Origin: an uncultured Candidatus Berkelbacteria bacterium
GTDB lineage: Bacteria; Patescibacteriota; UBA1384; UBA12157
Assembly (NCBI GenBank): GCA_903877885.1
Contig: CAIRFN010000007.1
Coordinates: forward strand, 111 to 64,110
DNA: 64,000 nt
Direction: 5' to 3'
Numbering within the stretch: the stretch's first letter is position 1; every line of letters starts with the position of its first letter. Positions 13,997 through 58,035 of this stretch are shown piece after piece. The translations under genes were made by a program, and so were the position numbers. The notes under the pieces are model-generated. The model saw nothing but the letters and a program-made list of their open reading frames with translations. It was not told the DNA's origin and searched no databases.

Positions 13997-16822
13997 TTAA
14001 ATTTTAACCGATTTACCCTCTTCTAAAGGCTCTGCATTACTATTTGCTAGGCTTTTCATAATAATAGCTTTATCTTCTTCAATCTCTGAATTGATTGGCT
14101 TAAGCACTACTGGAGCTATAACAGCTGGCTCTTCGGTAGAAGTTTCTGGCTCTAATGCCGCCAGACGATCCTTTTGCCATTGTTCCATTTTATCATCAAA
14201 AACTTCCGCTTTTTCTTCAGTTTTTTGAATTTTTTCTTGGACCGTTTCTTCAGTTAAAGGTTGATCTTCGGTGCCACCGCCCAAGTACCAACGAACATCG
14301 CCGGGGTTTTGGACTTCGCGGTAATAGGTCTCCCCTATTTTTGGTGGGATTTTCACCACTAACTTCTTTTGCTGTTTAGTCATAATCTCTTCAATTTTTG
14401 GTAAATCCGCAATTTGACCAATTTGGGCTTCAACATATTCCCGATTCTTACTGTAAGTTTTCCGGGAAAACTCAATGATTTTTTCCACATTATTAAACTT
14501 AGTGGCGCTTCGCGGTAAGGTCTTGGCAGAAAACGCCGGGCTCGTCACACTATCAATGGACATCTTCACATAGACATGATAGTTATCGAGGTTAATTAAA
14601 TCATTGGCTTCGAAAATCGGCATAAACTCTGATTGTAGAAAATCCGCATCCGGTGAGCCAACGCGGAAAGTAATAATGGTCCCAACGTTACCGATAACCG
14701 CATCGCGGACCGGTTCAATCATTTGGGCCACATATTGATGAGCCATAATTAAGTTCAAATGATATTTGCGAGCTTCAGACAAAATAGTGGCAAACGATTC
14801 GGTCGCAAAGTTTTGAAACTCATCAACATAGAGATAGAAATCGCGACGATCTTCTTCTTTGATGCTGGCGCGGCGCATCGCAGTTAACTGAATTTTGGTA
14901 ATCATAAGAGAACCAAGCAAGGCCGAAGCATCTTCACCAATCTCACCAGTAGAAAGATTGACCAAGAAGATTTTGCCCGTATTCATAATTTCTTCAATAT
15001 TGATGGTCGACTTTGGCTGGCCAATAATATTACGAATCGTGGAGCTGGAAAGAAACTGACCAACTTTGTTTTGAATTGGAGCAATGGCTTCAGTTCGAAA
15101 CTTTGGATCGTATTGCTCATATTCGTTGACAAAGAAATCTTTAATCACCGGATCGGTAATTTGGGTGACGACTTTGTCGCGATAGGATTTATCAACCAGA
15201 AGTCTGGTTACGCCGAGCATAGTGGAATTTGGCACATCCAAGAGCGCCAGGACCGTGTTACGCAAAATGTATTCCAGTCTTGGACCCCAACTTTCACCAA
15301 AGATTTTTTTGAAAATACCGACGACACCAGAGGCGATAATGTTTTTCAAATCTGGATCAACGTTTTCCAATGGATTAAAAGCCACCGGATAGTTTCGATC
15401 GGCTGGCGAGAAAATAACCACATCTTTAATTCGCTCTTCGGGAATATATTCAATAATATGATTAATCAAATCACCATGAGGATCGACCACGGCAATACCA
15501 CGACCTTCGCGAATATCATCAATGGCCATATTTTCCAGCAAAGTTGATTTACCGGTCCCAGTCTTACCAATGACATACATATGATAGCGGCGATCCGGGA
15601 TCTTAATCCCAAATTTGTGTTTCAAATGCCTGAAGTCGGTTTGACCAAAAATCGTTAAATCTTGCGGGTCCACATTTTCTTCAATTGGCAAGTTCGCTGG
15701 CGGTTCGCCTTTTTTACTTCCGGCCCAAACAATGTTTGGCGTGGCGACGGTAATACTCGGTAAATGGTAAATGCTAGCTAATTCTTCGGTATTTAGAACA
15801 TAGCCTTCATCGATAAACAAACGGTGAGCATAATCAGCCCAGGCCGTCGGAGAGGTGTTAAGCGAACCGGATTTAAAACCATTCATATTTAAAAGATTAA
15901 ATTGTTTAAAAGCGCTCACGATTTCGGTAATTTTAGCTCTAGCTGTATTTTCATTGGGCGCGACTGATAATAAACGGATTTTGGTCCCGAAGCCCAATTT
16001 AGTCACTTTGGTTTCAATGCCTTTAAGTCCTGCCTCTTCAGTCCCGGACAGTTTAGTTTCTTCAGCCTTAACTCCACGAGCCGATTCTGGTGTAGTGCCA
16101 GTCATAATTGTGGTAAAAATCGCCGAGAGACTTCTGGCGACAGTACCCCAGAAAATCTCACTTAGATTTTTGCCTTTGACAGTGCCAGACTTAACCGCTT
16201 TAATATGTTTCATGCCCTTGGATTGCCAATCATCAGGCACAGGTTTAACCATAATTTGCATCCAGATTTGTTCATCACGTTCGATTTTTGATAAGACACT
16301 AGTAATAGCAGACAAAGGATCGACTTCAAAATTTAAGAAGGATTTAATCGGAAAAACATCGTTATTGGTTAAACTAATTTCGGTCCCAGCAACTTTGGCG
16401 CTACCAGAATTAACATGTTCAGCTTCTTCTAGAGTGTAGTCATCGACTTCGTTAATTTCCGCAGTCGGATATTGGGCATAGATCTGACCGGTGACAAAAT
16501 CTTTTAAATGAGTTGGAGTGCAAACATAGAAATAGATGTATTTATCACGCGCCGCAATTTCAAAACTAATATATTCTTGATAAGGATTTTCTGCTCGGTA
16601 AATACCATGAATAGCCGAAAACATTTGTTCGGCAGCTAATGGTGTTTTTTCATTGTTTTTTGGGACCAGAATTCTAAGGACAACAAAACGTATTTTCGAA
16701 AACCATTCGATTTTCTGGTTTTGTTGGCGATTCTTGATGATTTTAGAAATAATCAGCATTGGCATCAAAATAACTCCGAGTAGAATTAAGCCTTTAATAA
16801 ATAGTGGTAATAATGTTTGCAT
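13997..16822 (-). CDS. Membrane-anchored FtsK/HerA-superfamily ATPase, TraG/VirD4 (T4CP)-like, with a long N-terminal domain and an acidic C-terminal tail.
   Basis: N-terminal TM helix; Walker A VIGKTGTGKST followed by AVVDPHGDL (T4CP DPKGE-like); Walker B YLYVDEFQNF. Paralog of the 17384-19900 gene. Confidence 0.7.
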   Translation of the reverse strand: MQTLLPLFIKGLILLGVILMPMLIISKIIKNRQQNQKIEWFSKIRFVVLRILVPKNNEKTPLAAEQMFSAIHGIYRAENPYQEYISFEIAARDKYIYFYVCTPTHLKDFVTGQIYAQYPTAEINEVDDYTLEEAEHVNSGSAKVAGTEISLTNNDVFPIKSFLNFEVDPLSAITSVLSKIERDEQIWMQIMVKPVPDDWQSKGMKHIKAVKSGTVKGKNLSEIFWGTVARSLSAIFTTIMTGTTPESARGVKAEETKLSGTEEAGLKGIETKVTKLGFGTKIRLLSVAPNENTARAKITEIVSAFKQFNLLNMNGFKSGSLNTSPTAWADYAHRLFIDEGYVLNTEELASIYHLPSITVATPNIVWAGSKKGEPPANLPIEENVDPQDLTIFGQTDFRHLKHKFGIKIPDRRYHMYVIGKTGTGKSTLLENMAIDDIREGRGIAVVDPHGDLINHIIEYIPEERIKDVVIFSPADRNYPVAFNPLENVDPDLKNIIASGVVGIFKKIFGESWGPRLEYILRNTVLALLDVPNSTMLGVTRLLVDKSYRDKVVTQITDPVIKDFFVNEYEQYDPKFRTEAIAPIQNKVGQFLSSSTIRNIIGQPKSTINIEEIMNTGKIFLVNLSTGEIGEDASALLGSLMITKIQLTAMRRASIKEEDRRDFYLYVDEFQNFATESFATILSEARKYHLNLIMAHQYVAQMIEPVRDAVIGNVGTIITFRVGSPDADFLQSEFMPIFEANDLINLDNYHVYVKMSIDSVTSPAFSAKTLPRSATKFNNVEKIIEFSRKTYSKNREYVEAQIGQIADLPKIEEIMTKQQKKLVVKIPPKIGETYYREVQNPGDVRWYLGGGTEDQPLTEETVQEKIQKTEEKAEVFDDKMEQWQKDRLAALEPETSTEEPAVIAPVVLKPINSEIEEDKAIIMKSLANSNAEPLEEGKSVKI

Positions 16823-16834
16823 AAGTTATTTTCT

Positions 16835-17347
16835 TTACTTTTTTTCAACTAAATTTTCGATGGCTGCCCAATCGCATTCACCAACTTTTGGTACCACAGC
16901 GGTAACTTTGTCGCCAGCTTTGGCTTTGAAATATGTGACTGATGATTGCAGACATTGATACTTTTTGTTATCACAAGTAACATGCCAGCGTTCACTAGTT
17001 TTTTGCAATTTGCCCATCACACGTTTGCGTTCGACTGGTCCAATTTGTTTAAAGATAAAAGAGCCGTCGGGACTGATGGTTAGTTTCATTTTGTCGCCAG
17101 CCACCAATTTTGATTTGGACGCATAGTTAGCGGGCACAGAATGCTTGGTCCCATCTTTATCAATCATTTCTTCGCCATCAAACACACCTTCGATAATCGT
17201 TAACGGTCCGGTGGTAATCATTTCTAAATTCTCGGCTTCTTCTTGATAAACTTGCTCAAACATAATCCGACGCACCGATCGAACTTTTTCTTCAATTTCT
17301 TCTAATAGTTTTCTAAGTTGTGTAAATTTTTTACCATCTTGATCCAT
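16835..17347 (-). CDS. Hypothetical 170-aa protein encoded between the two T4CP-like ATPase genes.
   Basis: ORF, co-directional and tightly spaced with its neighbours. No recognisable domain. Confidence 0.5.
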   Translation of the reverse strand: MDQDGKKFTQLRKLLEEIEEKVRSVRRIMFEQVYQEEAENLEMITTGPLTIIEGVFDGEEMIDKDGTKHSVPANYASKSKLVAGDKMKLTISPDGSFIFKQIGPVERKRVMGKLQKTSERWHVTCDNKKYQCLQSSVTYFKAKAGDKVTAVVPKVGECDWAAIENLVEKK

Positions 17348-17383
17348 AGTATCCTCATTTTTGTTTTTGTATTTTAAAGTATC

Positions 17384-19900
17384 CTACAAATTGTTTAGTG
17401 GTCCATTTGCTCCAGCTGGTGGAGTAACTGGCGGTTGAGCTGCGAAACTTTCGGCCATAATTTGATTTATTTCGGCTACCGGTCGGCAATAATTTTGGCG
17501 CGACAGGTTCCTCACTTGCTCACGAACTTCCGGATTTGAAGGAACACCGCTTTTAATTCCTTTCATACTAAACGGCTTGGTCGGCGTACCATCAACCAGT
17601 AGTTTAGTATAAGTGTTAAATTTATCTAAATTGGTCATATCGTCAACTGACAGCCCCGGAAATTCCTTGACCATGAACTCGGCGTCAGCCGCACCAATGC
17701 GATAGCAAATCATGGTGCCAGCGTTACCGACGACCGCATCACGAATCTTTTCGGTTAGTTGAGCAATATATTGGTTGGTAATATTTAAGCTTAGTCGATA
17801 TTTGCGCGCTTCAGACAAAATAGTGGCAAAACTGTCGGTGGCAAAGTTTTGAAACTCATCAACATAGAGATAGAAATCCTTGCGGGTTTCCTCTGGCATA
17901 TCGGCGCGGGAGAAGGCGGCCATTTGGATTTTATTAACAATAATCAAACCCAAAAGGCTCATATTGACTTCGCCGATTTTACCTTTACTTAAGTTTACCA
18001 ATAAAATTTTGCCTTCATCCATAATCTGGCGAAAATCAAAAGCCGATTTTTTCTGACCGATAATATTGCGCATCATATCGTTGGTCATAAAACGACCAAA
18101 TTTAGATGTAAAATAATTTAACATTTCCGATTTATGAAAATCAGCGGTTTTAGCCATTTGCTGATCCCAGAAACCCTTGACCACCGGGTCGGTGACATAG
18201 GACACGACTTTTGTTTTGAAAGCATCATCGGTAAAAATACGCGGAATATCGATTAAGGTACCGCCGCCTGGTTGAGCCATAATAGTTAGTGCCGCATTTC
18301 GAAACCAATGTTCAAATTGCGGTCCGACCATACCGGTACGATTCGGGTCAAATAATTTATAGAAAATCTCGATCACTTCTTGAATTAAAAAGTCACGATC
18401 TTCCGCATTTTTAAATTCCATCATGTTAAGACCAGCCGGCCATTCGGTATCCGAGGGGTCAAATAGAATAACATCTTTCATTCGTTCCGGTGGAATTTTA
18501 CCAAGCAAATCTTCGATGGCGTCGCCCAATGGATCAATATAACAACAACCGTGACCGGCCAGAATATCTTGCTCAATCATATTGGTAAACAAAGTGGTTT
18601 TACCCACACCGGTTTTACCAATCATGAAAATGTGGCGGCGGCGGTCATCAGGCTTAATTTTAATAAAAGTTTCTTGGTCCCGATAAACCGACAAGCCCAT
18701 GGTTGTGCCTTCGGTTGGCACATTGGCTGGCGGCGCCATTTCTTTAGCCAAGAGCCAGCGAATGTTTGGGGTTTCAATGTTTTGGTTGGGAAAGTGATAT
18801 AAAGTCGCCAATTCTTCGGTATTTAGGATAAAGCTCTTTTTACCTCGAAGAAAGCGTCGCAAAATGTATTCTTTGGCTGTAGTAGCATCGCCAGATTTGA
18901 TTTTAAAACCATTAAGTTCCGGTGTACCCAAAACCGCAAAAGCCGAAGCCATATTTTGCAAATTAGTGCTCGCCGACATTTTATCGGTGGCCACACTCAC
19001 TAAGCGCAAAGTTGTCTTAAAACCGTTTTTAGAAACCTTTTCATTGAGAGCCTTCATCAAACCATCTTGAATCGGGGTCATTGGTTTGTAAGTATTTTTA
19101 TCCATGCCTGGCGGTTTGTTGGCAATGGAATCGGTCCCGGAATGGACCGCACTGGAAAAACTATCAAAAAACCAATGAATCGCTTTAATATACCATTTGT
19201 CGATTAAAACCGAGGTCTTACCTTCCTGAACTTTTTTAATCGCGGTAATGGCCGGAATGCGCCAGTTCTCACCGGCTGGTCGAATAATCATTTGGAATGC
19301 GGCATTAGCACCTTCGCCCAATTTACTCATGGTGTTAGTAATACTATTTAAAGGATCACTTTCGAGCGCGGCATAGGTTTTGATCGGCAAAATAAATCTT
19401 TTAGTTAATTTCATCGTAGCGGTGGCGAAATCACCGGTTTGAACTTGGCCATCAGCATTTTTAAGTTCAAAAATATTTGGGGTTCGCACTGACACTAAAT
19501 TGGCAGTTGGATATTGCGATTGGATTTGTTTAGAGACCATTTCCTCAATCATTTTGGGACAAGAAACATAGAAAGAAATCAAATTGTCCTTGGCCACAAT
19601 TTCAAAGGAAATTTGTTCTTGTTCCTGAATGATTTGATTAGTGATGTCCGATGAGTACAAGCTGGCAAAAGACGAAAACATTTGCTCAGCCACAGAAATA
19701 AGTTGTTTAAAATCTTTTGGCGCTTCCTTGTCGCTAACATGATGAAGTTCTTTAGGTAGAGTCACCAAGAAAACCCGAGTATTTAAAACCCGTTGAATTT
19801 CCAAGTTTTTGCGATGATTCTCGACCAGCCAATAAATAAAATAAGCTAGGCCGAAAATTGCGACAACTATCAGCCAAAAAATGATAAAATTAAATTCCAT
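17384..19900 (-). CDS. Membrane-anchored FtsK/HerA-superfamily ATPase, TraG/VirD4 (T4CP)-like, paralog of the 941-aa protein.
   Basis: N-terminal TM; MIGKTGVGKTT then YIDPLGD; YLYVDEFQNFATDSFATILSEARKY is near-identical to the block in the 941-aa paralog. Confidence 0.7.
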   Translation of the reverse strand: MEFNFIIFWLIVVAIFGLAYFIYWLVENHRKNLEIQRVLNTRVFLVTLPKELHHVSDKEAPKDFKQLISVAEQMFSSFASLYSSDITNQIIQEQEQISFEIVAKDNLISFYVSCPKMIEEMVSKQIQSQYPTANLVSVRTPNIFELKNADGQVQTGDFATATMKLTKRFILPIKTYAALESDPLNSITNTMSKLGEGANAAFQMIIRPAGENWRIPAITAIKKVQEGKTSVLIDKWYIKAIHWFFDSFSSAVHSGTDSIANKPPGMDKNTYKPMTPIQDGLMKALNEKVSKNGFKTTLRLVSVATDKMSASTNLQNMASAFAVLGTPELNGFKIKSGDATTAKEYILRRFLRGKKSFILNTEELATLYHFPNQNIETPNIRWLLAKEMAPPANVPTEGTTMGLSVYRDQETFIKIKPDDRRRHIFMIGKTGVGKTTLFTNMIEQDILAGHGCCYIDPLGDAIEDLLGKIPPERMKDVILFDPSDTEWPAGLNMMEFKNAEDRDFLIQEVIEIFYKLFDPNRTGMVGPQFEHWFRNAALTIMAQPGGGTLIDIPRIFTDDAFKTKVVSYVTDPVVKGFWDQQMAKTADFHKSEMLNYFTSKFGRFMTNDMMRNIIGQKKSAFDFRQIMDEGKILLVNLSKGKIGEVNMSLLGLIIVNKIQMAAFSRADMPEETRKDFYLYVDEFQNFATDSFATILSEARKYRLSLNITNQYIAQLTEKIRDAVVGNAGTMICYRIGAADAEFMVKEFPGLSVDDMTNLDKFNTYTKLLVDGTPTKPFSMKGIKSGVPSNPEVREQVRNLSRQNYCRPVAEINQIMAESFAAQPPVTPPAGANGPLNNL

Positions 19901-27998: not shown

Positions 27999-28016
27999 AG
28001 TAACTCCTAATTAATA

Positions 28017-28982
28017 TTATTTTTGATATTTCAGATAGCTTTCGATAAAACCGTCTAAGTCGCCGTTTAAGACTGCGTCGGGATCAGTCGAAGTATAATC
28101 GGTCCGATGGTCTTTGACTTGTTTGTATGGATGCAGAACATAGGAGCGGATTTGCGAGCCAAACTCGGCCGAGATATGCTCACCACGAAGTTTAACTTCT
28201 TCCTCGCGCTGTCGTTTTAATTCTAAAGCAAGCAACCGTGATTGTAAAATCTTCATGGCCATTTCTTTGTTTTGCAGTTGCGAACGTTCGTTTTGAACCG
28301 CAACAACTAGACCGGTTGGCAAGTGTGTTAACCGCACGGCCGAGTCAGTCGTATTGACTGATTGGCCGCCATGGCCGCCAGCGCGATAAACATCAACTTT
28401 CAAATCTTTATCTTCAATCGTAATATCGGTGGACTTATCAACTTCCGGCACGACTTCGACTAAAGCGAATGAGGTGTGACGAGCTTTGTCGGAATCATAG
28501 GGGCTTAGTCGGACTAAGCGGTGAACACCGGCTTCGCCTTTTAGTAACCCGAAAGCAAATGGTCCCTTAATTTCCAAAGTCGCGGACTTAATCCCCACTT
28601 CCTCGCCCGATGAAACTTCCAAAATCGTTTGAGTGAAACTTTTGCGGTCCGCATAGCGCTCATACATTCTAAGCAACATTTCCGCCCAATCTTGAGCGTC
28701 AGTGCCACCGGCTCCGGCGTGAATGGAAATAATAGCATTATTAGTATCGTATTTACCAGACAGCGTCGCTTTAATTTCCAGCGCATGAATTTGATCTTCG
28801 GTTACAGCCTCTGTCCATTCATCAACCAGTTTTTGCAAACTACTCATTTGTTGAGTCTTAAGCCCAGCTTCTTGAGGGTTAGCCCAAAAATCGGGACTAT
28901 TCATCTCTTGGTGAATGGCGGTAATTTTCTCTTCTTTAGCCGCTATATTTAATAAATTATATAATTCTTCTTTACTTGTCAT
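28017..28982 (-). CDS. prfB: Peptide chain release factor 2, encoded in a single frame with no programmed frameshift.
   Basis: GGQ motif (AGGHGGQSVNTTDSAVRLTHLPTG) and SPY (SPF-type) specificity loop RLSPYDSDKARHTSFA. Confidence 0.85.
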   Translation of the reverse strand: MTSKEELYNLLNIAAKEEKITAIHQEMNSPDFWANPQEAGLKTQQMSSLQKLVDEWTEAVTEDQIHALEIKATLSGKYDTNNAIISIHAGAGGTDAQDWAEMLLRMYERYADRKSFTQTILEVSSGEEVGIKSATLEIKGPFAFGLLKGEAGVHRLVRLSPYDSDKARHTSFALVEVVPEVDKSTDITIEDKDLKVDVYRAGGHGGQSVNTTDSAVRLTHLPTGLVVAVQNERSQLQNKEMAMKILQSRLLALELKRQREEEVKLRGEHISAEFGSQIRSYVLHPYKQVKDHRTDYTSTDPDAVLNGDLDGFIESYLKYQK

Positions 28983-29033
28983 GATTAGATTATAACAGGA
29001 AGGTCCAATAAGCTCAAGTCGGTTTAGTTAAGT

Positions 29034-29060
29034 ACAAAAAAACCGCGAAATAAATCGCGG
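29034..29060 (-). terminator. Intrinsic terminator after the 437-aa gene.
   Basis: Minus-strand CCGCGA-TTTATT-TCGCGG followed by a T7 run. Confidence 0.65.
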
Positions 29061-29074
29061 AATAAGTTTCGATA

Positions 29075-30388
29075 TTAATCGCCAGATTTTAACAATCTGA
29101 TAATATCCTGTTGTAAATTGGCTTTGACAAAGATTGGCTGCCAATGTTCAGCCGTGTCTTTGCCAGTATCGTAGGGTAAGACATAAGTCGAATTTTTGCT
29201 CAAATGTTTGATGATATCCAGACCACTTTGGCGCTCGTAGTCTTCGACTTTTGTGCGTTGTATGTCAGACATCTTGGTTTTTCGAACATGACCGCGAACC
29301 GCATGCGGCGATTTAAAGTTATTTGTGCATTCTTTGCGAATCGGTTTTAGTTCATCGGTTTTGAGAACTTTAGTAGAAATAGTCCGCTGAATGTAGATAA
29401 ACCGTGGTTTGTATTCGGAAATTAGCCGAACACCATAGGTTTTGGCTGGTTTCCAATCCTGGCGCGCCTGACTTCGATCATTAACTTTAACTTCCTTGGC
29501 TGTGCATAAGTCATGATAGATCAGCCAAGCAATAAAGTAAGCGAAATTGTAAGGACGGCCGCCATGGTCCATACCGATAGAAGTAAGAACATCGGGATCA
29601 ACGGCAACCATTGTCAATGAACCATAAGTGAATTCGGCTTTAATCATTAAGCCAAAATCGCCGGTCCCATACATCTGTTTGGGTTTAATTTTAACCCATT
29701 TGAGAATCGGATAACCGTGAATAACCACCTCGGTCCCGTCTGGGTCCGGCGCGTAACGGAAATTTTCTTTCAAGTCTTGATAGAGATTAGTAATAATACG
29801 TAAATCATTGAAAATTGGAATCTGATCGACAATTTGTTCAATCTGATAAATATCCGTCGGATCCGAAATGTAATCAAGATCAGTTTCATTGTCATACCAT
29901 AGTAACTGACCTTTGACTGGCAAAATCATTGTTCGCAAATCTTCAACCGATGTAACTTGTTTGCGGAGATTTTTAAACAATGGTTTACGGCCACTATAGC
30001 CGACTAGAACTTTGGTTTCATCGCCGATCAGATAATGAATCTGAACAATGATAATGTAAAGCAAGCTGTAAATATCATCGTCACCATCCACCCGAATTTC
30101 GGCCAGAATAGTATAGAATTCATCGAGTAGACTGAACTGCCGAGTGACTTCGATTTGCTTGGCAATAAGCGAAATTTTTTCAAACAGTCGATCAATAAAC
30201 AGTTCGGCCGATTCTTGATATTTATCGTCCGACATTTCAGTCATCATCGAAGTCAAAAATTTGCCACCGGTAGCGCAATCATCAGGCACCGGCAAAGTGA
30301 TGTTCGGATTAACACAAACTTTTTGAAGTAGTCGATGAGCCGCGCTTCGCGCAAGATAAGTCTTTAAAATTTCTGGCTTCTGCCACAT
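29075..30388 (-). CDS. Hypothetical protein (437 aa), GC-richer than the core genome.
   Basis: ORF followed by an intrinsic terminator at 29034-29060. No recognisable domain. Confidence 0.5.
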   Translation of the reverse strand: MWQKPEILKTYLARSAAHRLLQKVCVNPNITLPVPDDCATGGKFLTSMMTEMSDDKYQESAELFIDRLFEKISLIAKQIEVTRQFSLLDEFYTILAEIRVDGDDDIYSLLYIIIVQIHYLIGDETKVLVGYSGRKPLFKNLRKQVTSVEDLRTMILPVKGQLLWYDNETDLDYISDPTDIYQIEQIVDQIPIFNDLRIITNLYQDLKENFRYAPDPDGTEVVIHGYPILKWVKIKPKQMYGTGDFGLMIKAEFTYGSLTMVAVDPDVLTSIGMDHGGRPYNFAYFIAWLIYHDLCTAKEVKVNDRSQARQDWKPAKTYGVRLISEYKPRFIYIQRTISTKVLKTDELKPIRKECTNNFKSPHAVRGHVRKTKMSDIQRTKVEDYERQSGLDIIKHLSKNSTYVLPYDTGKDTAEHWQPIFVKANLQQDIIRLLKSGD

Positions 30389-30486
30389 ATCAGTCTCTCC
30401 TTTTGTCTGCAGGTTGGATTGTTAAGGTCGCATCGATAATAAGTAATTTTAACACCAAAACGACTAATCGTCAAGATTTTTAGTAC

Positions 30487-30527
30487 TAAAAAAGACTCTT
30501 TTGATATTATCGCCAGAGTCTTTTTTC
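30487..30527. terminator. Bidirectional terminator downstream of the LPXTG gene.
   Basis: AAAAAAGACTCT-N15-AGAGTCTTTTTT. Confidence 0.6.
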
Positions 30528-30538
30528 TTATATTAACT

Positions 30539-31147
30539 TTAGAAGTTTAATAAGTGAGAAACTGAATTGATACCTTGTTTGGTCCGATTAATTAGATAAC
30601 CGGTAGTTCCCAAACCAGCGACCAATAATGAAACAGCCACGTCCGCACCAGTTTTTGGCAAAGTGCCAGAACTGACCGGAGTACCAATTTTCACAACATT
30701 ACTGTTGGAGTTGGCATTGCTGTTCTTGCTGGTTTTATTGCTGGTTGAAGAAGATTTCTTGCTACCAGCAGTAGATTTGGCATTAGCAGTTGCTGAAGCC
30801 GAACCAGAAGCAGAACCAGAACCAATGTTAATAACATTGTTATTGGCATTAGCGTTAGCATTACTATTAGCATTGTTGTTGCCAGTAGTAGTCGCCAACT
30901 GGTGACTGGTTTGATGAGTAGAAGTGGTGTTGTTGGCCGCAGTTGATTTAGCGGTCGAATCAGCATCGGCTGAACCTTTAGCTGAGCCTGAACCAACGTT
31001 GATAACATTGTTGTTAGCATTTGAGCTAGCATTAGAGTTAGCATTATTGTTGGTAATTACAGCATCACTAGCATATGAAATGCCAGTAGTTGCCAATAGA
31101 CACAAAGCCATGGCCACTGCCACGAAAGTTTTGTTAGTTTTGTTCAT
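30539..31147 (-). CDS. LPXTG-anchored Asn/Ser-rich repetitive surface protein.
   Basis: Signal peptide and NANSNA.NNNVIN.GSGSA repeats. C-terminal LPKTG, then a hydrophobic stretch, then a basic tail (NRTKQ). Confidence 0.7.
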   Translation of the reverse strand: MNKTNKTFVAVAMALCLLATTGISYASDAVITNNNANSNASSNANNNVINVGSGSAKGSADADSTAKSTAANNTTSTHQTSHQLATTTGNNNANSNANANANNNVINIGSGSASGSASATANAKSTAGSKKSSSTSNKTSKNSNANSNSNVVKIGTPVSSGTLPKTGADVAVSLLVAGLGTTGYLINRTKQGINSVSHLLNF

Positions 31148-31329
31148 TTTATCCTTTCTTGGATATTATATGTTTTTTGAAATAAAATCAAATTCAAATT
31201 TACAAGACAACCCTGGAAGTTACCTTCTGATTCAAATTGACATTTTTTCGCCTTTCGACAAAGGCCTTGGGATTCTTCCCAAATTCGATTGCCTCGGAAG
31301 TTACTCCGAGGCGTTCGATCTAGAAGGAA

Positions 31330-32151
31330 TCAGCGGGCTACCGCCCAATTGTTGTTGGCGTTGCTATTAACATTTGAATTCAAGTTGTTGTTGGTTATCG
31401 GACCAACCGATCCACCGGTGGCCGATCCACCGGCTCCGCCGGTGGCAGTCGCAGACACATTGATTCGCGTCGGCGACGTTGTCGAAATACCGATCAACTG
31501 CCATGTGTTCATGGTCGCGCCATAAACACCACCCATCTGCGCGCAACCGTATTGTTGCGGTGCGAAGTTGTTCGTGATGTTATACACCACGATTGGTTGC
31601 ATCGGCGGTTGCGGTTGAGGCAGCGTAACTTGTTTTTCGATAACCCGCTCGATCACTCTTGTCTCACCAGGGTCACCTTTATCGCCTTGTTTACCTGTCG
31701 CCCCGACTAATCCCTGAATCACTGTCGTCGTATTCTTTTGAACGACGATTGTTTCAGGTTTGTCAAGCTTGCCATAGAAGAGAATCGCGTTACCGCGGAT
31801 CCCCTTCTGGGCATGCAGGAAATGGCCGTCGCCCGTCTGAAAGGTTACTCCAACCATTTGGGCTGACTCTTGCGGCGTGACATCCGGCCAAGGGACAGCA
31901 TCGTCCGGAGCAATACCCCACCGAAATTTGCCATTGGCACCAACCGGCAGATTTTCTTCAACACCTTCGTGTTTTGTAAAAAAATCCTTCGGCAGGCCAA
32001 ACCAATGAGCAAACCCAGTGTATCGCGCATCGGTACGAACCTCACTGACTGTGAGTTTCGCACGCTGTTCGGTCACATAGCCAGGCACACTAGCCTGGAC
32101 AAGGGTTACTGCCATTACGGCTAGCAGCAAAGCCATCACCAGATTTTTCAT
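31330..32151 (-). CDS. Secreted protein with a short collagen-like G-X-Y run and an Asn/Ser-rich C-terminus.
   Basis: Signal peptide; GATGKQGDKGDPGE; C-terminal NNNLNSNVNSNANNN resembling the adjacent LPXTG protein. High G+C. Confidence 0.5.
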   Translation of the reverse strand: MKNLVMALLLAVMAVTLVQASVPGYVTEQRAKLTVSEVRTDARYTGFAHWFGLPKDFFTKHEGVEENLPVGANGKFRWGIAPDDAVPWPDVTPQESAQMVGVTFQTGDGHFLHAQKGIRGNAILFYGKLDKPETIVVQKNTTTVIQGLVGATGKQGDKGDPGETRVIERVIEKQVTLPQPQPPMQPIVVYNITNNFAPQQYGCAQMGGVYGATMNTWQLIGISTTSPTRINVSATATGGAGGSATGGSVGPITNNNLNSNVNSNANNNWAVAR

Positions 32152-32154
32152 CGA

Positions 32155-33504
32155 CTAATCCTCCTCAATCGTGATGAAATCCGTTTTTATCGTGGGTATT
32201 TCACCACGATAAATATGTATTTCCAGGATATTCACATCCGCGTTGGTACACTGGACGGAATTCGCCGTAGCCGTGGCATAAGCAAGGACGGCACCAGTCT
32301 TATGGTCACAGAGTGAGATACACTGCGGTTTAGCCATTAACTGGTAAAACCACTTACTATTGACCAACTGAGTTGGGCATTTTATATTCTTAATGCCCTT
32401 CCAGATAACGACTGTGACACTCAAATTGAGTGTAACTAACTCTTCAGACGGTTGCGTTTTTATAACAGTTGATACGCTCGCCGTCGCTGTCGATGATGCA
32501 GTCGCGGTTACACTCACCGATGAAGATGAGCTTACTCGTACTTGTCCATCAACATGAATTGTTGGCGGAATATTCGATTCCACCTGCGGTACTGTTGGCA
32601 CAATTGCCTGCGGTACAGCTGGCGGACCAAGTGGTTCTCCTTGCGGCATTGGTGGCTCGATTTTCTGTGGTACCACCACCGGCGGCAACGGAATCGGAAT
32701 CGGAACTGGAGTTGGCGGCGGCGCTTGTTGACTTGGACTTGGCGGCGGTTGGGTATGATTATTAGTCATACCAGCCACTGTGTTATTCAAAGCCACCACA
32801 GCCGGATCAGGTGTTGCCCAACTGGGCACAAAACCTCTAAGATACGTAAATGTCGTATGATCGCCGTCAATAGTATTCGGTATTTGGTCGAAATCAGGCA
32901 TTGCCTGCTGGACCATAATATCGAATCCGACTGTTACCTTGCGAGTTGAGTCATAAGTAATCGGAATAATTACGATTGTGATTTTATTATGTTTATCACA
33001 AACCGCGACTTTCCATTCTAGACTTGACATCTCACCAGGCGTTAACGCGACTGCAATATCGCGCGACTCATAGACATCCTTATCTTTCGCCTTTTTCTTT
33101 GGCATTAGAACTTTACATTTCATTAACACCGGCTCATTGCCGATAGGTAATGATAATGAATAGCCCTTATTGACAAAAAAATTAGTCTGCCAAACAGTGT
33201 TGCCACCATCTGGCGTCATAATCGCCTCTTCGATTTTTCCACCTTCGATACCGACAGTGGAAAGCGAAACTTCGTAAGACATCGATGAATGCGCTGTTAC
33301 CACAGTTAAAACATTCATCTTGGTGCTTGTACCACCGACCGGACGACCAAAGTGCTTGGCATTACAACGTGACGAAAGCCCAGTTAGGTCAGTCCATTCA
33401 GTGATGGAAATTCCACCACTCCATTGAAAGTCTTGCGCCAGAATCGGCGCTACTGTAATCGCTATGATTACAGCAAGAAACCAAATTTTCAAATTACCTC
33501 GCAT
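32155..33504 (-). CDS. Secreted protein with a Pro-rich linker and a Ser/Thr/Ala-rich segment.
   Basis: Signal peptide (AVIIAITVAPILAQ); PPPSPSQQAPPPTPVPIPIPLPP linker; SSSSVSVTATASSTATAS. High G+C. Confidence 0.5.
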   Translation of the reverse strand: MRGNLKIWFLAVIIAITVAPILAQDFQWSGGISITEWTDLTGLSSRCNAKHFGRPVGGTSTKMNVLTVVTAHSSMSYEVSLSTVGIEGGKIEEAIMTPDGGNTVWQTNFFVNKGYSLSLPIGNEPVLMKCKVLMPKKKAKDKDVYESRDIAVALTPGEMSSLEWKVAVCDKHNKITIVIIPITYDSTRKVTVGFDIMVQQAMPDFDQIPNTIDGDHTTFTYLRGFVPSWATPDPAVVALNNTVAGMTNNHTQPPPSPSQQAPPPTPVPIPIPLPPVVVPQKIEPPMPQGEPLGPPAVPQAIVPTVPQVESNIPPTIHVDGQVRVSSSSSVSVTATASSTATASVSTVIKTQPSEELVTLNLSVTVVIWKGIKNIKCPTQLVNSKWFYQLMAKPQCISLCDHKTGAVLAYATATANSVQCTNADVNILEIHIYRGEIPTIKTDFITIEED

Positions 33505-33677
33505 GTCGATACCTCCTCAACTGAATTTCGATTGCGAATTTTTTTGCCAAAAGATTTTGGCCTTGTTAAAGGGCGGAGATCTTTTTGGCGAAAGATTAGC
33601 CGGAGTAAGGGACGAGGGGCAGACCCAATATAATAAGGGTCAACTCTCCACAAACCCCAGCTAATCTTTTGTCAAAA

Positions 33678-33706
33678 AGAAGGGCACCTTGGCCCTCTCC
33701 TTTTTT
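33678..33706. terminator. Putative terminator downstream of cysS.
   Basis: AGGGC-ACCTTG-GCCCT then CTCCTTTTTTT. The stem is short. Confidence 0.4.
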
Positions 33707-33746
33707 TATTTTCAACACTAAATTGTAACACAAACCGACTGGTTTG

Positions 33747-35102
33747 TCAAGGTTTATTTAGTATTTTTGTGCCTTCAGCCGTGTCTTCGATATTAATGCC
33801 TTGCTCGGCCAACTCGCTTCTTATTTTATCAGATTTAGCCCAATCACCAACCTTGCGCGCCGCTTCGCGTTCTTCAACCATTGATTTTTGTTCGACAGAT
33901 AATTCGGTTTTAGCCTCTTTTTGAATTAAGTCCAAACCCAAAACCCTATCCATTTCAGCAACGGTTGCTAGCTTATCTTCAGGGCTAATTTTGTCATCGC
34001 GAACCAATTCCCAAAGAACTGACAATGCCCCTGGCGAATCTAAATCATTAGCCATTTTAAGGTTAAACTGGCCAGAATATTCAGTGTTAATACTACCAAT
34101 ATTTACATCAAAATCCTCGATTATCCGCTTTAATCTGGTTCGCGCGTTTCTGGCACCTTCCAGACCATCCCAGGTAAAATTCATTTTAGTTCGATAATGG
34201 GCCCCTAAGCAAAGATAACGAAAATCGAGCCCGGAAAAACCCTTAGCTTTGATATCGTTTAAAGTATAGAAATTATTTAAGGATTTGCTCATCTTCTTGT
34301 TGTCAACCAAAAGATGTTCGTTGTGGAGCCAGTAATTAACAAATTTAACCCCGGTTTTGCCTTCAGATTGAGCAATTTCGTTTTCATGGTGCGGAAAAAT
34401 ATTATCAACGCCGCCGGTATGAATATCTAGAGTGTTACCCAAAATATCCATCGACATCGCCGAGCATTCAATACTCCAACCAGGCCGACCTTTACCAAGT
34501 GACGTTTCCCAAAAAATCTCGCCGTCAGCTTCGTCCCAAGCTTTCCATAAAACAAAATCAGCCGGGTTTTCCTTGTCATATTCGTCTTGATTGACTCTAG
34601 CACCAGGCTTTAAACTAGTCTGATCCAAATGCGCCAATTTACCATATTCAGGAAATTTGGCAATCGAAAAATAAATTGAACCGTCGCTGGTTTTATAGGC
34701 CAAACCTTTTTCCAGCAATACTTCGATAAATTTAACCATTTTGTCAACGTATTTAGTCGCGTTAGTCACCACATTTGGCTTCAGATTATTAATTTGGGAA
34801 AAATCAGACCAAAACTGGTCTTCATATTTTTTAATCACCTGCTCAAATTCCGCCCTCTTGCCCTCGCCTTTTTTGATTGTTTTATCGTCAATATCAGTAA
34901 TATTCATCACCCGATTCAGATCGTATCCGGCGTGAGTCAAAACTCTGGTCAAAAGATCAGCAAAAATATAGGCGCGCAAATTGCCAATGTGAACCGAGTC
35001 GTAAACCGTTGGACCGCAAGTGTAAAGTTTAACTTTACCCGGTTCGATTGGTTTAAAATCTTCGATTTTACGATCTAAGGTATTAAAAAATTTAATCGTC
35101 AA
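33747..35102 (-). CDS. cysS: Cysteinyl-tRNA synthetase.
   Basis: CGPTVYDSVHIGN (HIGH) and KMSKSLNN (KMSKS) motifs; Zn ligands. Confidence 0.9.
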   Translation of the reverse strand: MTIKFFNTLDRKIEDFKPIEPGKVKLYTCGPTVYDSVHIGNLRAYIFADLLTRVLTHAGYDLNRVMNITDIDDKTIKKGEGKRAEFEQVIKKYEDQFWSDFSQINNLKPNVVTNATKYVDKMVKFIEVLLEKGLAYKTSDGSIYFSIAKFPEYGKLAHLDQTSLKPGARVNQDEYDKENPADFVLWKAWDEADGEIFWETSLGKGRPGWSIECSAMSMDILGNTLDIHTGGVDNIFPHHENEIAQSEGKTGVKFVNYWLHNEHLLVDNKKMSKSLNNFYTLNDIKAKGFSGLDFRYLCLGAHYRTKMNFTWDGLEGARNARTRLKRIIEDFDVNIGSINTEYSGQFNLKMANDLDSPGALSVLWELVRDDKISPEDKLATVAEMDRVLGLDLIQKEAKTELSVEQKSMVEEREAARKVGDWAKSDKIRSELAEQGINIEDTAEGTKILNKP

Positions 35103-35331
35103 ATTTATCTTCTTCCTCTTCGTCAGCCTCTTCTAATGGCACGATTTCAATCTCACCATCTTTTTGAACCATATCTTTCGGATACGATTCCAAATCTTCA
35201 TCGTCAAATTCATCATAAGCGGAATTACCTTCCGAAAAAACACCACCGCAAATGTCGCAAATATCCCCAATTGGACCTTTTTCGCCACATTCACAGACAC
35301 CTTCTAAAAGTTGATCTTCTGTCATTTCCAT
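35092..35331 (-). CDS. Small acidic protein with a CxC...CxxC zinc-ribbon-like cluster.
   Basis: 79-aa ORF with GVCECGEKGPIGDICDICGG and D/E-rich flanks. Overlaps the cysS start. Confidence 0.4.
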   Translation of the reverse strand: MEMTEDQLLEGVCECGEKGPIGDICDICGGVFSEGNSAYDEFDDEDLESYPKDMVQKDGEIEIVPLEEADEEEEDKFDD

Positions 35332-35340
35332 CTCCCTTTA

Positions 35341-35420
35341 TTAATTATTTAATGCAGAATGCAGAATTAATTAATTTATTTTTTAATTCTTTTATTCTGA
35401 ATTCTGAATTATCTAATTAT
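35341..35420. repeat. Repeat D copy 1 (AT-rich palindromic element).
   Basis: Contains ATGCAGAATGCAGAATTAATTAAT...TTCTGAATTCTGAATTA. Immediately downstream of the recR stop. Confidence 0.5.
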
Positions 35421-36022
35421 TAATATTCTTTTCTTCCCTCTAATGCTCTAGTTAGAGTGATTTCATCGGCATATTCCAGATCGCCACCAACCGGCAAACC
35501 TCTGGCAATCCGGGTCACCTTAACTTTGAAGCCTTTTTTATGTATTTGGCTATCCAAATACATACTGGTCGCTTCCCCTTCCAATGATGGGTCGGTAGCC
35601 AAAATCACCTCTTTAATTTCGGGGTTCTTCTCGATTTTAGCTAAAAACTCCGCAATACGCAAATTTTCCGGGCCAATACCATCGATCGGCGAAATTACCC
35701 CGCCTAATGTAAAGTATAAACCATCGTAATCGGTCTTTTCCAGTGCCACAATGTCAAGAGGTTCCTCCACTACCATAATTTTAGTTTTATCGCGTTGAGG
35801 ATTAGCGCAAATTTCGCACGGTTCGCTTTCAGTAATATTAAAACATTCGGAACAATATTTTAGGTTTTTCTTGAGATTTGAAACCGCCTCGCCCAGGTTT
35901 TTAATATCATAATCAGGTTTATTAAGTAAATAAAAAGTCAGCCGCCCGGCGGTTTTAGGCCCAATTCCAGGCAGTTTTCCAAATTCTTCAATTAAATTTT
36001 CGATCGATTTCGGTAACCGCAT
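35420..36022 (-). CDS. recR: Recombination protein RecR.
   Basis: LPGIGPKTAGR helix-hairpin-helix, C4 zinc finger CSEC...CEIC, Toprim domain. Start at MRLPKS. Confidence 0.9.
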   Translation of the reverse strand: MRLPKSIENLIEEFGKLPGIGPKTAGRLTFYLLNKPDYDIKNLGEAVSNLKKNLKYCSECFNITESEPCEICANPQRDKTKIMVVEEPLDIVALEKTDYDGLYFTLGGVISPIDGIGPENLRIAEFLAKIEKNPEIKEVILATDPSLEGEATSMYLDSQIHKKGFKVKVTRIARGLPVGGDLEYADEITLTRALEGRKEY

Positions 36023-36115
36023 ATATTGAATATATAAATTACTGGATGTTTTAGCAAGGGGCATTTTCCACCACCGCCACTTCGGAAGTGGAGGTGAGGT
36101 TTGAGCCCCGTCCTC

Positions 36116-36144
36116 TTGACTTTTGAGGGATTTTGGAGTATGAT
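36116..36144 (+). promoter_or_regulatory. Sigma-70-type promoter TTGACT-17-TATGAT for cassette 1.
   Basis: TTGACTTTTGAGGGATTTTGGAGTATGAT, followed by an AAGGAGG RBS. Confidence 0.55.
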
Positions 36145-36181
36145 ATTATATTGAATCTGGAAATCGAAAAGGAGGAAATAG

Positions 36182-36403
36182 ATGAAAGATTGTATGGACA
36201 TCACGTCCCCAAAGGGGACAAAAGTCCGGTTTTCCTACCCTAAAAATGGGTATGACAGTGACCAGGCCACGGCTAAAAAACATTTAACTGTCGGTCAGGT
36301 CTATACCGTGGACCACACCGTGGTTCACGACTGGCACACTGAAGTCTTTCTCCAGGAAAAGCCTGGAGTAAGCTTCAATCACGTGCATTTTGCGAAAGCA
36401 TAG
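36182..36403 (+). CDS. Hypothetical 73-aa protein in self-contained cassette 1.
   Basis: Own consensus promoter, AAGGAGG RBS and intrinsic terminator. GC-richer than the flanks. Confidence 0.5.
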   Translation: MKDCMDITSPKGTKVRFSYPKNGYDSDQATAKKHLTVGQVYTVDHTVVHDWHTEVFLQEKPGVSFNHVHFAKA

Positions 36404-36417
36404 GCACATTCTAACAG

Positions 36418-36484
36418 CCCGCGAAAAGACCCGTGAAGACATAAATTTATTTTTATTTCTTCATCCCGTCTTCGCGGGTTTTTT
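36418..36484 (+). terminator. Intrinsic terminator of cassette 1.
   Basis: CCCGCGAAAAGACCCGTGAAGAC...GTCTTCATCCCGTCTTCGCGGG then TTTTTT. Confidence 0.7.
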
Positions 36485-36508
36485 CGTATTTAAAAAATAC
36501 ACTTACTC

Positions 36509-36537
36509 TTGACAAATGACGGATTTTACCATATAAT
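36509..36537 (+). promoter_or_regulatory. Sigma-70-type promoter TTGACA-17-TATAAT for cassette 2.
   Basis: TTGACAAATGACGGATTTTACCATATAAT. Homologous to the cassette 1 promoter (CTCTTGAC...TGA.GGATTTT). Confidence 0.6.
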
Positions 36538-36566
36538 TGCTATATCAAAATCCAGAGGAGGACGTT

Positions 36567-36869
36567 ATGTCTTTACGACCATTTCACGAAACGATTGTGG
36601 ATGCCATTAAGCGATGCAAGCCCAGTCCATCTGCTGGCGAGATTCTTCATCTCCATCGATTGATTATGGACACCAAAATCCCGTCAAATCACGATGCAAT
36701 CCTGGAAGCGCTTCGCAAATATTGGGATTTCCCAGGATCCAGTAAATGGGGCCTCGAAATTCAGGACGTTGAAAAATCTCTGCGTGAGCAGAAGCAGAAA
36801 CATCTCGAAGAACAGGCTGAACACCAGCCGAAAATGACCGAAGAGGAAGACTACCGTCTGCGTCGATAA
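36567..36869 (+). CDS. Hypothetical ~100-aa protein in self-contained cassette 2.
   Basis: Consensus promoter TTGACA-17-TATAAT, AGGAGG RBS 6 nt before the ATG at 36567, and a terminator homologous to that of cassette 1. Confidence 0.5.
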   Translation: MSLRPFHETIVDAIKRCKPSPSAGEILHLHRLIMDTKIPSNHDAILEALRKYWDFPGSSKWGLEIQDVEKSLREQKQKHLEEQAEHQPKMTEEEDYRLRR

Positions 36870-36893
36870 AATATAACCAATAACCCGCGAAAG

Positions 36894-36930
36894 CGGCGGA
36901 AAAGCCCGCCCTCTAGTTCGCGGGTTTTTT
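36894..36930 (+). terminator. Intrinsic terminator of cassette 2, homologous to the cassette 1 terminator.
   Basis: CCCGCGAAAGCGGCGGAAAAGCCCGCCCTCTAGTTCGCGGG then TTTTTT. Shares its ends and 3' flank (TTTTTTCGTA.TTAAAAA) with the 36418 element. Confidence 0.7.
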
Positions 36931-37013
36931 CGTACTTAAAAATATAAAATTTATATCTTTTCATACCTTTCCATCCACCTCGTAGGTGGAACAATAGGTT
37001 TAGTAACCAGTTA

Positions 37014-51131: not shown

Positions 51132-51133
51132 AA

Positions 51134-51175
51134 CCTAGATTCCGGATCTAGGTTGCCAACCTGTCCGGAATGACA
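51134..51175. repeat. Repeat A, inverted copy.
   Basis: CCTAGATTCCGGATCTAGGTTGCCAACCTGTCCGGAATGACA, between the Ig-like protein and the vWA protein. Confidence 0.8.
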
Positions 51176-51186
51176 AAAAGGAAATT

Positions 51187-52917: not shown

Positions 52918-52948
52918 ATTTTTTTACTCCTCGAACATTTTATGAAAT

Positions 52949-52988
52949 CTGGATTCCAGATCCTGATGCCATCCGGTCTGGAATGACA
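52949..52988. repeat. Repeat A, inverted copy.
   Basis: CTGGATTCCAGATCCTGATGCCATCCGGTCTGGAATGACA. Confidence 0.8.
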
Positions 52989-52995
52989 AGACAGA

Positions 52996-54789: not shown

Positions 54790-54807
54790 TATTCTTTCCT
54801 TTGTATG

Positions 54808-55224: not shown

Positions 55225-55244
55225 TTGTACTCCTTTATTTATGA

Positions 55245-55339
55245 TGTCATTCCAGACAGATTGGCAATCTTGATCTGGAATCCAGGAAAATTGTTACTGG
55301 ATCCCCGATGTTGAATTACCATTCAACTCGAGGATGACA
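55245..55339. repeat. Composite repeat A+B unit.
   Basis: TGTCATTCCAGACAGATTGGCAATCTTGATCTGGAATCCAGG then CTGGATCCCCGATGTTGAATTACCATTCAACTCGAGGATGACA, between minor pilin genes. Confidence 0.85.
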
Positions 55340-55353
55340 AGGAGAAATTATTA

Positions 55354-55899: not shown

Positions 55900-55927
55900 T
55901 TTTTCCTTTAGAATATTATGGACCAGC

Positions 55928-57119: not shown

Positions 57120-57120
57120 T

Positions 57121-57909: not shown

Positions 57910-57928
57910 ATGGTATTAAGTTTTTGCT

Positions 57929-58023: not shown

Positions 58024-58035
58024 ATTCGATTACGT

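Follow-up and report, generated by a model that had tools for sequence, protein, structure and literature searches.

Between the cysS and prfB genes of an uncultured Candidatus Berkelbacteria bacterium lies a small cluster of genes for secreted or surface proteins, two of which carry matching low-complexity segments. The cluster was analyzed in a 64-kb stretch of contig CAIRFN010000007.1, here called the window (always meaning the stretch at its full length), which falls entirely within the annotated part of its parent scaffold (positions 10,024-92,501; 82.5 kb). Four open reading frames (ORFs), named A, B, C and D here, occupy the interval between cysS (33747-35102) and prfB (28017-28982), all of them on the minus strand, as are the other features of the cluster described below. 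Gene A (32155-33504) encodes 449 aa and is followed after a gap of only 3 nt by gene B (31330-32151, 273 aa); gene C (30539-31147) encodes 202 aa and gene D (29075-30388) 437 aa. Sec-type signal peptides are found at the start of A, B and C, and D has none. A preliminary description of the region had listed the four co-directional ORFs, including the 437-aa ORF that is gene D, with exactly these coordinates and this strand, and had taken A, B and C to be secreted or surface proteins. That description proved largely accurate, and its interpretation of the four genes as a compositionally foreign island is not supported.

The cluster is bounded on both sides by terminators, as had been noted earlier. 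Upstream, an intrinsic-terminator-like hairpin with a U-run follows the 3' end of cysS (33680-33697), and equivalent hairpins follow cysS in two related loci (L010 and L014). Downstream, a strong intrinsic terminator (CCGCGA-loop-TCGCGG followed by seven T residues; 29043-29060) lies beyond the 3' end of D and before the prfB promoter. A third hairpin can be read directly from the sequence beyond the 3' end of C (30488-30526). Its GACTCT/AGAGTC stem encloses a 15-nt loop and lies between an A-run and a T-run; the terminator scan overlooked this hairpin because the loop exceeds 8 nt. This hairpin likely forms a terminator-like end to a unit consisting of A, B and C.

What do the three genes of this unit encode? 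Gene A, of the type called A1 here, encodes a signal peptide, a beta-rich N-terminal domain of ~240 aa, the long Pro-rich linker that the preliminary description had remarked on (approximately residues 254-312), a Ser/Thr run, and a C-terminal domain of ~90 aa. Only six homologues of A were found among 5.8 billion proteins. In the AlphaFold2 (AF2) model, the C-terminal domain (residues 358-449) has a predicted local distance difference test score (pLDDT) of ~82, and the N-terminal domain is modeled partially, in part as a beta-sandwich. Foldseek returned no match to A in PDB or viral structures with E<0.08 or a template modeling (TM) score >0.35. In relatives, the first slot of the cluster holds a secreted protein of ~380-430 aa, which is either of type A1 or of a second type, A2. 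Remote homology between the two types was considered and rejected, with an hhalign probability of 2.6% and nothing found by BLASTP.

Gene B encodes a signal peptide, a conserved N-terminal domain (residues ~23-130; 31762-32085), a degenerate collagen-like tract of six G-X-Y triplets (GLVGATGKQGDKGDPGET; 31660-31713), and a linker leading to a Gly-rich and Asn-rich tail module (31333-31452). The G-X-Y run and a tail resembling the module of C were both recognized in the preliminary description. Among 5.8 billion proteins there are 10 homologues of B, seven of which carry PF01391, with tracts that align at the same position. The window protein, with its six triplets, does not match PF01391 at E<=1; given the aligned position of the tract in its homologues, it can be regarded as belonging, in shortened form, to a collagen-like family. 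The N-terminal-domain family is small (32 clusters among 1.84 billion representatives), and scans found one locus in a genome collection and, using a four-sequence alignment, four loci in metagenomes. AF2 predicts an alpha/beta fold for the N-terminal domain (residues 23-130, pLDDT ~80) and disorder for the remainder. Foldseek returned no PDB match for the B model at the thresholds given for A (E<0.08 or TM >0.35), and a profile search with this domain found no PDB entry either. The protein ends in its soluble Asn-rich tail, with no LPXTG motif or membrane segment; the anchor sits on its neighbor, C.

Gene C encodes what the preliminary description had called a sortase substrate, and each of the sequence features named for it was found. 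The signal peptide (MNKTNKTFVAVAMALCLLATTGISYA, with SD beyond the cleavage point) combines a basic n-region with a hydrophobic core, and its cleavage context is A-x-A-like. It is followed by two copies of an Asn/Ser-repeat module, encoded by a 133-nt direct repeat whose copies are 71% identical (30920-31052 and 30749-30881), and by a low-complexity spacer that leads to LPKTG (residues 163-167; 30647-30661). A hydrophobic segment and a basic tail complete the protein (30542-30646): the hydrophobic stretch comprises 20 residues with a mean Kyte-Doolittle value of 1.3, and the tail is RTKQGINSVSHLLNF (+2/0). Indeed, the tripartite sorting signal, consisting of LP[KE][TA]G, a hydrophobic segment and a basic tail, is present in all six C orthologues, including that of the window. 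In the other five, the hydrophobic segment is 21-23 residues long and the motif reads LPKTG, LPETG or, in three cases, LPEAG. Matches of C to LPXTG-type NCBIfam models are weak, for example 20.2 bits of the 47 required for NF053819 (EF0750_LPXTG; E 6e-4) and an E-value of 0.7 for NF033902 (SpaH/EbpB). Beyond these, C has no match to any Pfam, NCBIfam or PHROG family, and A, B and D have none at all. The chaplin and curlin families of Pfam did not match C, for which only PF09307 and PF24544, both unrelated and far below threshold, appeared at E<=1. No sortase is encoded in the window, as had been stated: the TLxTC motif occurs in no real ORF, and no called gene at scaffold positions 10,024-92,501 has a Pfam sortase domain. 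Sortases and sorted proteins have been reported in TM7 genomes (PMC3812714), and one sortase family is present in more than half of the genomes of the Candidate Phyla Radiation (CPR) (PMC6744442).

Matching ends of B and C

In each genome, the ~40 residues at the end of B are similar to the N-terminal tip of mature C, and the motif that they share differs between genomes. In the window, taking the long allele of B described below, the B tail is ITNNNSNSNVNSNANNNVINTGSGSAHGSSDAT and the C tip is ITNNNANSNASSNANNNVINVGSGSAKGSADAD. The corresponding pairs are VNQTQNTGVSVDNSNSNANSNNVGVAVDG and VNQDQTTSVDIINNNSNANSNNIAIAVDADG in L013, and NTAVQQSQAQAQDN and NTAVSQNQSQAQNS in L017; in L014 and L016, both the tail and the tip consist of Ser/Ala runs. 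Across genomes, the motif is thus Asn-rich, Gln/Asn-rich or Ser/Ala-rich. The cognate pair of B tail and C tip is the top-scoring one in five of six genomes. Relative to shuffled tails of the same composition, the cognate z-scores are 15, 12, 10 and 5 for the four informative motifs. When A was put in the place of C, z was ~0, and the possibility that A shares the module was rejected.

Is the resemblance a property of the proteins or of the DNA? Between the B tail and the C tip of the window, 29 of 40 positions carry identical residues, but the codon is the same at only 15 of them, and the nucleotide sequences are 62% identical. In L010, the codon is shared by 4 of 21 identical residues. Recent gene conversion between the B tail and the C tip was therefore rejected: nucleotide identity is 40-62%, and identical residues mostly differ in codon. 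The differing codons suggest that the match is held at the level of protein rather than DNA, and they make a recombinational fusion of B and C across the repeats unlikely. The longest exact DNA match between the B tail and C, judged by eye, is ~14-16 nt.

The segment of B that takes part in the match varies between near-identical strains, in keeping with a suggestion in the preliminary description that the repeats might vary at the strain level. Two forms of variation were found. First, the B tail contains a 68-nt insertion/deletion site (31347-31348). The short allele of B (273 aa, ending NWAVAR) is that of the window and of most contigs (15 contigs), and long forms occur on three contigs. 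The long allele (293 aa, ending in NNNVINTGSGSAHGSSDATGTGTSTSGR) is found in L006 and in a contig of ERZ1426629; it differs from the window allele by one single-nucleotide polymorphism and the 68 extra nt, and is otherwise 100% identical. The window allele, which lacks the 68 nt, is frameshifted and stops midway through the motif. Second, L023 and L013 share 99.6% identity over a stretch of 1123 nt that takes in the end of A2 and residues 1-265 of B; beyond it, there is no similarity. Past this breakpoint, L013 has an Asn-rich tail and an Asn-rich C, whereas L023 has a Ser/Gly-rich tail and a Ser-rich C, the latter only ~70% identical to the C of L016. The B tail and C thus appear to have been exchanged as one cassette, with a breakpoint where the tail module begins. 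Such an exchange could proceed through natural competence, a trait of Saccharibacteria (PMC10633639). If the matching segments are a docking module, this natural cassette swap points to its diversification.

One reading of these data is that B binds to C, and it is the reading developed below. The main rival, which we consider somewhat unlikely, is that B and C act independently and do not bind, their shared disordered module reflecting one strain-specific modification of both, such as glycosylation of segments rich in Asn, Ser and Thr, or a wall-spanning or spacer role under a common selection. The shared segments are indeed of low complexity and predicted to be disordered; against this, the matches between B and C are ordered motifs, with z-scores of 5-15 relative to shuffles, and they lie at defined sites, namely the extreme C-terminus of B and the N-terminus of mature C. 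For the Ser/Ala-rich variants, the match is not distinguishable from composition, as the rival would have it. Stretches rich in Ser, Thr and Asn are typical targets of glycosylation, but the Ser/Thr-rich run of A lacks the shared module, neither the swapped cassette nor the cluster includes a glycosyltransferase, and a co-evolving modifying enzyme would need a new specificity for each motif type. The joint exchange of the B tail and C is also expected under the rival, in that linkage alone would co-transfer them.

Inheritance and base composition

The DNA of the window is 100% identical over 4.9 kb in many metagenome assemblies from freshwater lakes (BUCK21), where it lies on a 159-kb scaffold. 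The neighborhood reads dprA-topA-recR-cysS, the cluster, prfB-ybaB-pth-rplA and, further on, rplJ-rplL-tgt followed by DUF8128 ATPases, and it corresponds gene for gene to that of a contig titled "uncultured Candidatus Saccharibacteria bacterium" by NCBI (L010/L012). The order cysS-[A or A2]-B-C-prfB-ybaB-pth is found in L010/L012, L013, L014, L016 and the ENA contig MooJyNsJ, and parts of it are found in L015, L017 and L021-L024. In all cases where the context is readable, B is located between cysS and prfB, and the protein in the C slot has ~190-230 aa. The slot is thus shared by at least six distantly related genomes of Saccharibacteria type. Genomes that carry the cluster share 57-82% identity in prfB, and the identity of the B N-terminal domain follows that of prfB (Spearman 0.95, from 10 pairs that are not independent). 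No integrase, transposase or other mobility gene and no repeat boundary flanks the cluster, and the 64-kb window contains no tRNA gene. Judged from gene order and divergence, a foreign origin of A-B-C is not supported, and the three genes are a conserved, lineage-specific cluster of Saccharibacteria-like bacteria, residing in the slot between cysS and prfB.

Gene D does not belong to this cluster, so the description of four genes as one island does not hold. D has a single homologue among 5.8 billion proteins (P0010, 39% identity), which is found in the same position, and it is missing from L010, L013, L014, L016 and contig MooJyNsJ. It has its own promoter-like site (TTGACG-17-TAAAAT, TG-extended; 30446-30474) in addition to its own terminator, and it is predicted to be a cytoplasmic protein of ordinary composition. 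No sequence in the PDB matched D, whether D was used by itself or in a profile with P0010, and PADLOC matched neither protein to a defense system. The lack of a signal peptide, the separate promoter-like site and terminator, and the absence from most relatives place D outside the surface-protein unit. On these grounds, D is to be seen as an unrelated, optional near-orphan inserted between C and prfB.

The preliminary description had reported elevated G+C for all four genes. This stands for B and, to a moderate extent, for A, and it falls away for C and D. Against a window mean of 39.3%, B stands out with a G+C content of 52.3% and a G+C at third codon positions (GC3) of 0.54 (z 3.6 for the gene); its GC3 is the highest of 55 genes. 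Gene A is moderately raised (45.6%, GC3 0.42, z 2.0), and C (41.7%) and D (40.9%) are ordinary. Tetranucleotide composition, which had been proposed as a check, divides the region in the same way: the distance is the largest in the 64 kb at 31501-33500 (z 4.0), and usage is ordinary over 28001-31500, which holds D and most of C.

In all relatives, the deviation recurs in the same genes. The GC3 of A (or A2) and B is 0.62-0.72, compared with 0.30-0.43 in the flanks and 0.29-0.39 in C. This excess is seen in the A and B genes of L010, L013-L017 and L021-L024, where the flanking G+C is 36-45%. The GC3 excess spans the globular domains and is at its minimum in the collagen tract, so amino-acid composition is not its explanation. 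Its conservation in all relatives indicates that the excess belongs to the genes themselves and does not point to recent transfer. There are three candidate causes. First, it may stem from biased gene conversion where recombination is especially frequent. Second, rare codons or mRNA structure may be favored by selection. Third, it may date from an ancient transfer from a high-GC host, with amelioration held off by selection. A strong local anomaly in G+C, GC3 and tetranucleotides can be an ancient, conserved property of genes, and need not be evidence of horizontal transfer.

These data bear directly on the proposal that the locus is a horizontally acquired, compositionally foreign surface-protein island, which we regard as improbable. 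A and B do deviate in G+C, GC3 and tetranucleotides, but C and D are compositionally ordinary, so the deviation expected of an island is found in A and B only, and is the same in all relatives. A gene-wide GC3 excess in all relatives would not outlast the neutral amelioration of a single old transfer. The families are very rare, and two unrelated proteins occupy the A slot across genomes, as might be expected of acquired DNA; even so, the cluster keeps the same slot at prfB identities as low as 57%, and the divergence of B parallels that of prfB. The cassette exchange between L013 and L023 indicates that DNA does move at the locus, but there is no tRNA gene, integrase, transposase or repeat boundary that would suggest an island.

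A phage origin, with the cluster as a remnant of a prophage or tail fiber, was also considered. Collagen-like repeats are common in phage tail fibers, a gene for a PF27001 (Phage_T4_Y07B) protein lies ~3 kb away, and the viral fold search with A returned weak collagen-repeat phage entries. That search gave no significant viral match for A, however, and none of the four proteins matches a PHROG family. No relative of the B N-terminal domain was found on 2.9 million viral contigs, which, together with the lack of PHROG matches, argues against a phage origin. The Sec signal peptides of A, B and C, the sortase signal of C, and the conserved housekeeping synteny point in the same direction, making a phage remnant the most improbable of the explanations considered, one to which we attach hardly any weight.

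The leader of gene A

Upstream of A, a near-consensus sigma-70-like promoter (TTGACA-17-TACAAT, TG-extended, 11 of 12 matches; 33722-33750) overlaps with the stop codon of cysS. As the terminator hairpin of cysS is situated further downstream, the role of this promoter is uncertain. Beyond this terminator, the leader of A contains a three-stem RNA hairpin of ~95 nt (33582-33674), in which the apical stem is flanked by the invariant strings GGAGAGUUG and GCCCCUC. The hairpin begins ~6 nt past the U-run of the cysS terminator, and its CCCCUCC is anti-Shine-Dalgarno-like. It is found in five lineages, always beyond the cysS terminator and ahead of either A1 or A2, with one copy per locus; elsewhere it lies at L010 8496-8590, L014 5847-5941, L021 131-225 and L022 23-115.

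Several lines of evidence suggest that the leader folds as RNA. The 217 nt upstream of A have a folding z-score of -5.8 relative to shuffles, and the leaders of L010 and L014 reach -8.2 and -8.9. From five sequences, RNAalifold predicts 34 pairs, 11 of which have compensatory double changes. In the alignment, 92% of the cells are paired, compared with 34-65% when partners are slid, and none of 500 shuffles reaches the observed values. A covariance model scores 71-106 bits for the sense strand and 24-36 bits for the antisense strand, and it found no further copy in 180 kb. Viral loci with both conserved strings were considered as further instances, with 80 of 94 primary-sequence hits returned as loci; the covariance model rejects all 80.

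The arrangement of promoter, terminator and hairpin, which leaves no space for a second promoter, suggests control by read-through or attenuation. The hairpin is a candidate for a previously undescribed cis-regulatory RNA, as judged from its predicted fold and conservation, and a candidate regulator of surface-protein expression that has no Rfam family. Rfam 15 gave no match at the gathering score, and in E-value mode it returned miRNA-hairpin noise of 15-27 bits, where 48-230 bits are required. Over the whole window, gene-dense as its 64 kb are, no Rfam family was found at the gathering score.

A putative surface fiber and its setting

How might the products of the cluster work together? The reading that we favor, and to which we give an even chance, is that A-B-C is a vertically inherited, lineage-specific surface-fiber operon of Saccharibacteria-type Patescibacteria, in which B docks on a sortase-anchored C. 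A sortase would link C covalently to peptidoglycan, and the Ala/Ser/Gly-rich spacer of C would span the wall. In genomes with a long collagen tract, this tract would probably hold B together as a trimeric fiber. The tail of B may then dock non-covalently on the matching tip of C, by a beta-type pairing of like with like, leaving the conserved N-terminal domain of B distal and facing outward. Such an assembly would form a putative surface nap or adhesin for the cell-cell contacts of an epibiotic bacterium, with a docking module and a tail length that vary between strains. A, which is probably translationally coupled to B and comes in two unrelated types, could serve as an accessory or specificity subunit, and the structured leader RNA would regulate the operon.

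A number of observations weigh against B docking on an anchored C. First, docking is proposed from sequence co-variation only. For the Ser/Ala types, L014 and L016, z is 0.8 and 2.5, which is inseparable from composition, and AF2 predicts the B tails to be disordered. Second, the dominant allele, that of the window, has a truncated B tail. Its collagen tract, with six triplets and no PF01391, also makes trimerization doubtful here. Third, further findings concern the anchoring of C. Three C orthologues have LPEAG rather than LPXTG, TIGR01167 scores 15.6 bits on C against a cut-off of 15.9, 0.3 bit short, and Pfam finds no sortase among the called genes in 82.5 kb of the scaffold. Fourth, the junction between L023 and L013 could in principle be an assembly chimera, and even a genuine joint swap of neighboring genes can arise from linkage.

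A docked B fiber can be compared with several known systems. The chaplins appear, by analogy of arrangement, to be the closest working analogue. In Streptomyces, the chaplin layer is tethered to the cell through the co-assembly of short chaplins with chaplin domains carried by the sortase-anchored long ones (PMC5618241). As at this locus, an anchored and a secreted protein share a short module, one that is self-associating in the chaplins (long ChpA-C, short ChpD-H). Two copies are on the anchored protein, as in the C of the window, and one is on the secreted protein; tethering by co-assembly of like domains is, for B and C, a proposal. There are also clear differences. PF03777 was not detected in the cluster, the B/C module is polar (rich in Asn, Gln or Ser) and variable between genomes whereas the chaplin module is hydrophobic, and B has ~270-470 aa and includes both a globular head and a collagen tract, whereas a short chaplin is a peptide of 55 aa.

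In terms of domain order, B and C together resemble the streptococcal collagen-like proteins Scl1 and Scl2, which have a signal peptide, a variable globular domain, a collagen-like region, a linker and LPXTG in one chain. From distal to proximal, the series of signal peptide, N-terminal globular domain, collagen tract, low-complexity linker, LPXTG, membrane segment and basic tail is the same. Here, however, two genes divide these parts between them, and each encodes a signal peptide of its own; the halves would be joined, if at all, by their matching low-complexity segments, and the globular domain of B belongs to an unrelated, uncharacterized family. BclA of the Bacillus exosporium and the fibers of Pasteuria are collagen-like, form a hair-like nap that sits non-covalently on an anchoring layer, and vary in repeat number between strains. 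The fiber proposed for B would likewise be a strain-variable nap on an anchoring protein. The orientation would be reversed: BclA attaches to basal-layer proteins by its N-terminus and has a C1q-like head at its C-terminus, whereas B would attach by its C-terminal tail to a sortase substrate and have its head at the N-terminus. Beyond G-X-Y, there is no sequence relationship.

Curli offer a further parallel, in that the surface-bound nucleator CsgB and the secreted CsgA have related Gln/Asn-rich repeats. The locus likewise pairs a cell-bound protein with a secreted one through related Asn/Gln-rich repeats, and like could template like in both. Curli differ in depending on a Gram-negative secretion system (CsgG/E/F), and the curlin repeat was not detected here. 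Since each B has a single short module, docking rather than fiber polymerization would be expected. The cluster also departs from the operons of sortase-assembled Gram-positive pili, which encode several LPXTG pilins and a pilus-specific sortase: here LPXTG is on C alone, and the operon has no sortase. The Pam pili of CPR bacteria are built from Ig-like subunits by donor-strand exchange with PapD-like chaperones, and are encoded by an operon that adjoins ATP synthase genes (bioRxiv 10.64898/2026.03.03.709456). They resemble the locus in being a lineage-specific surface filament system of Saccharimonadia in otherwise hypothetical genes. Identity with Pam pili was rejected, as there is no overlap with A-B-C in sequence, architecture or locus.

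What would such a system mean for these bacteria? Members of the Patescibacteria live attached to other cells and account for a large part of bacterial diversity, yet we know of almost no surface structures in the group beyond type IV pili and the recently described Pam pili. From its sequence features, the locus may be described as an uncharacterized fiber module of a sortase-tethered type, built from families without annotation. A more far-reaching reading, possible but in our view doubtful, is that the locus exemplifies a new mode of fiber attachment, in which a strain-specific zipper of like binding like tethers B to C and passes as a cassette among strains with natural competence; that its leader RNA is new, either a riboswitch or a protein-binding element; and that its GC3 excess arises by selection or biased gene conversion. 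As part of this more tentative reading, the B-tail/C-tip code would set which fiber fits which anchor. If the fiber mediates attachment of the epibiont to its host, it would be a new determinant of host range in Patescibacteria. As a compact three-gene system, the locus lends itself to testing: cognate B tails should bind cognate C tips, and non-cognate tails should not.

Other features of the window and its scaffold were also noted. A complete type IV pilus operon occupies 49185-63937 on the minus strand. It encodes an MshEN/T2SSE ATPase, a second T2SSE ATPase, a T2SSF platform protein, several N_methyl pilins and an A24 prepilin peptidase, along with large unannotated proteins of 576-648 aa. 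Composition-normalized tetranucleotide correlation reaches its minimum for the window at 35001-37000 (0.57, z -4.1). This segment contains two small genes on the opposite strand between recR and topA, one for the PF27001 (Phage_T4_Y07B) protein of 73 aa and one for a protein of 100 aa of unknown type. At 13997-19900 on the minus strand, two adjacent DUF8128/TrwB-like ATPases (941 and 838 aa) lie beside tgt; L010, L013 and L014 have a single such ATPase beside tgt in the same synteny. Beyond the start of the window, on the same scaffold (L020 1-2118), the gene for the ribonucleotide reductase large subunit contains an intein with a LAGLIDADG endonuclease domain.

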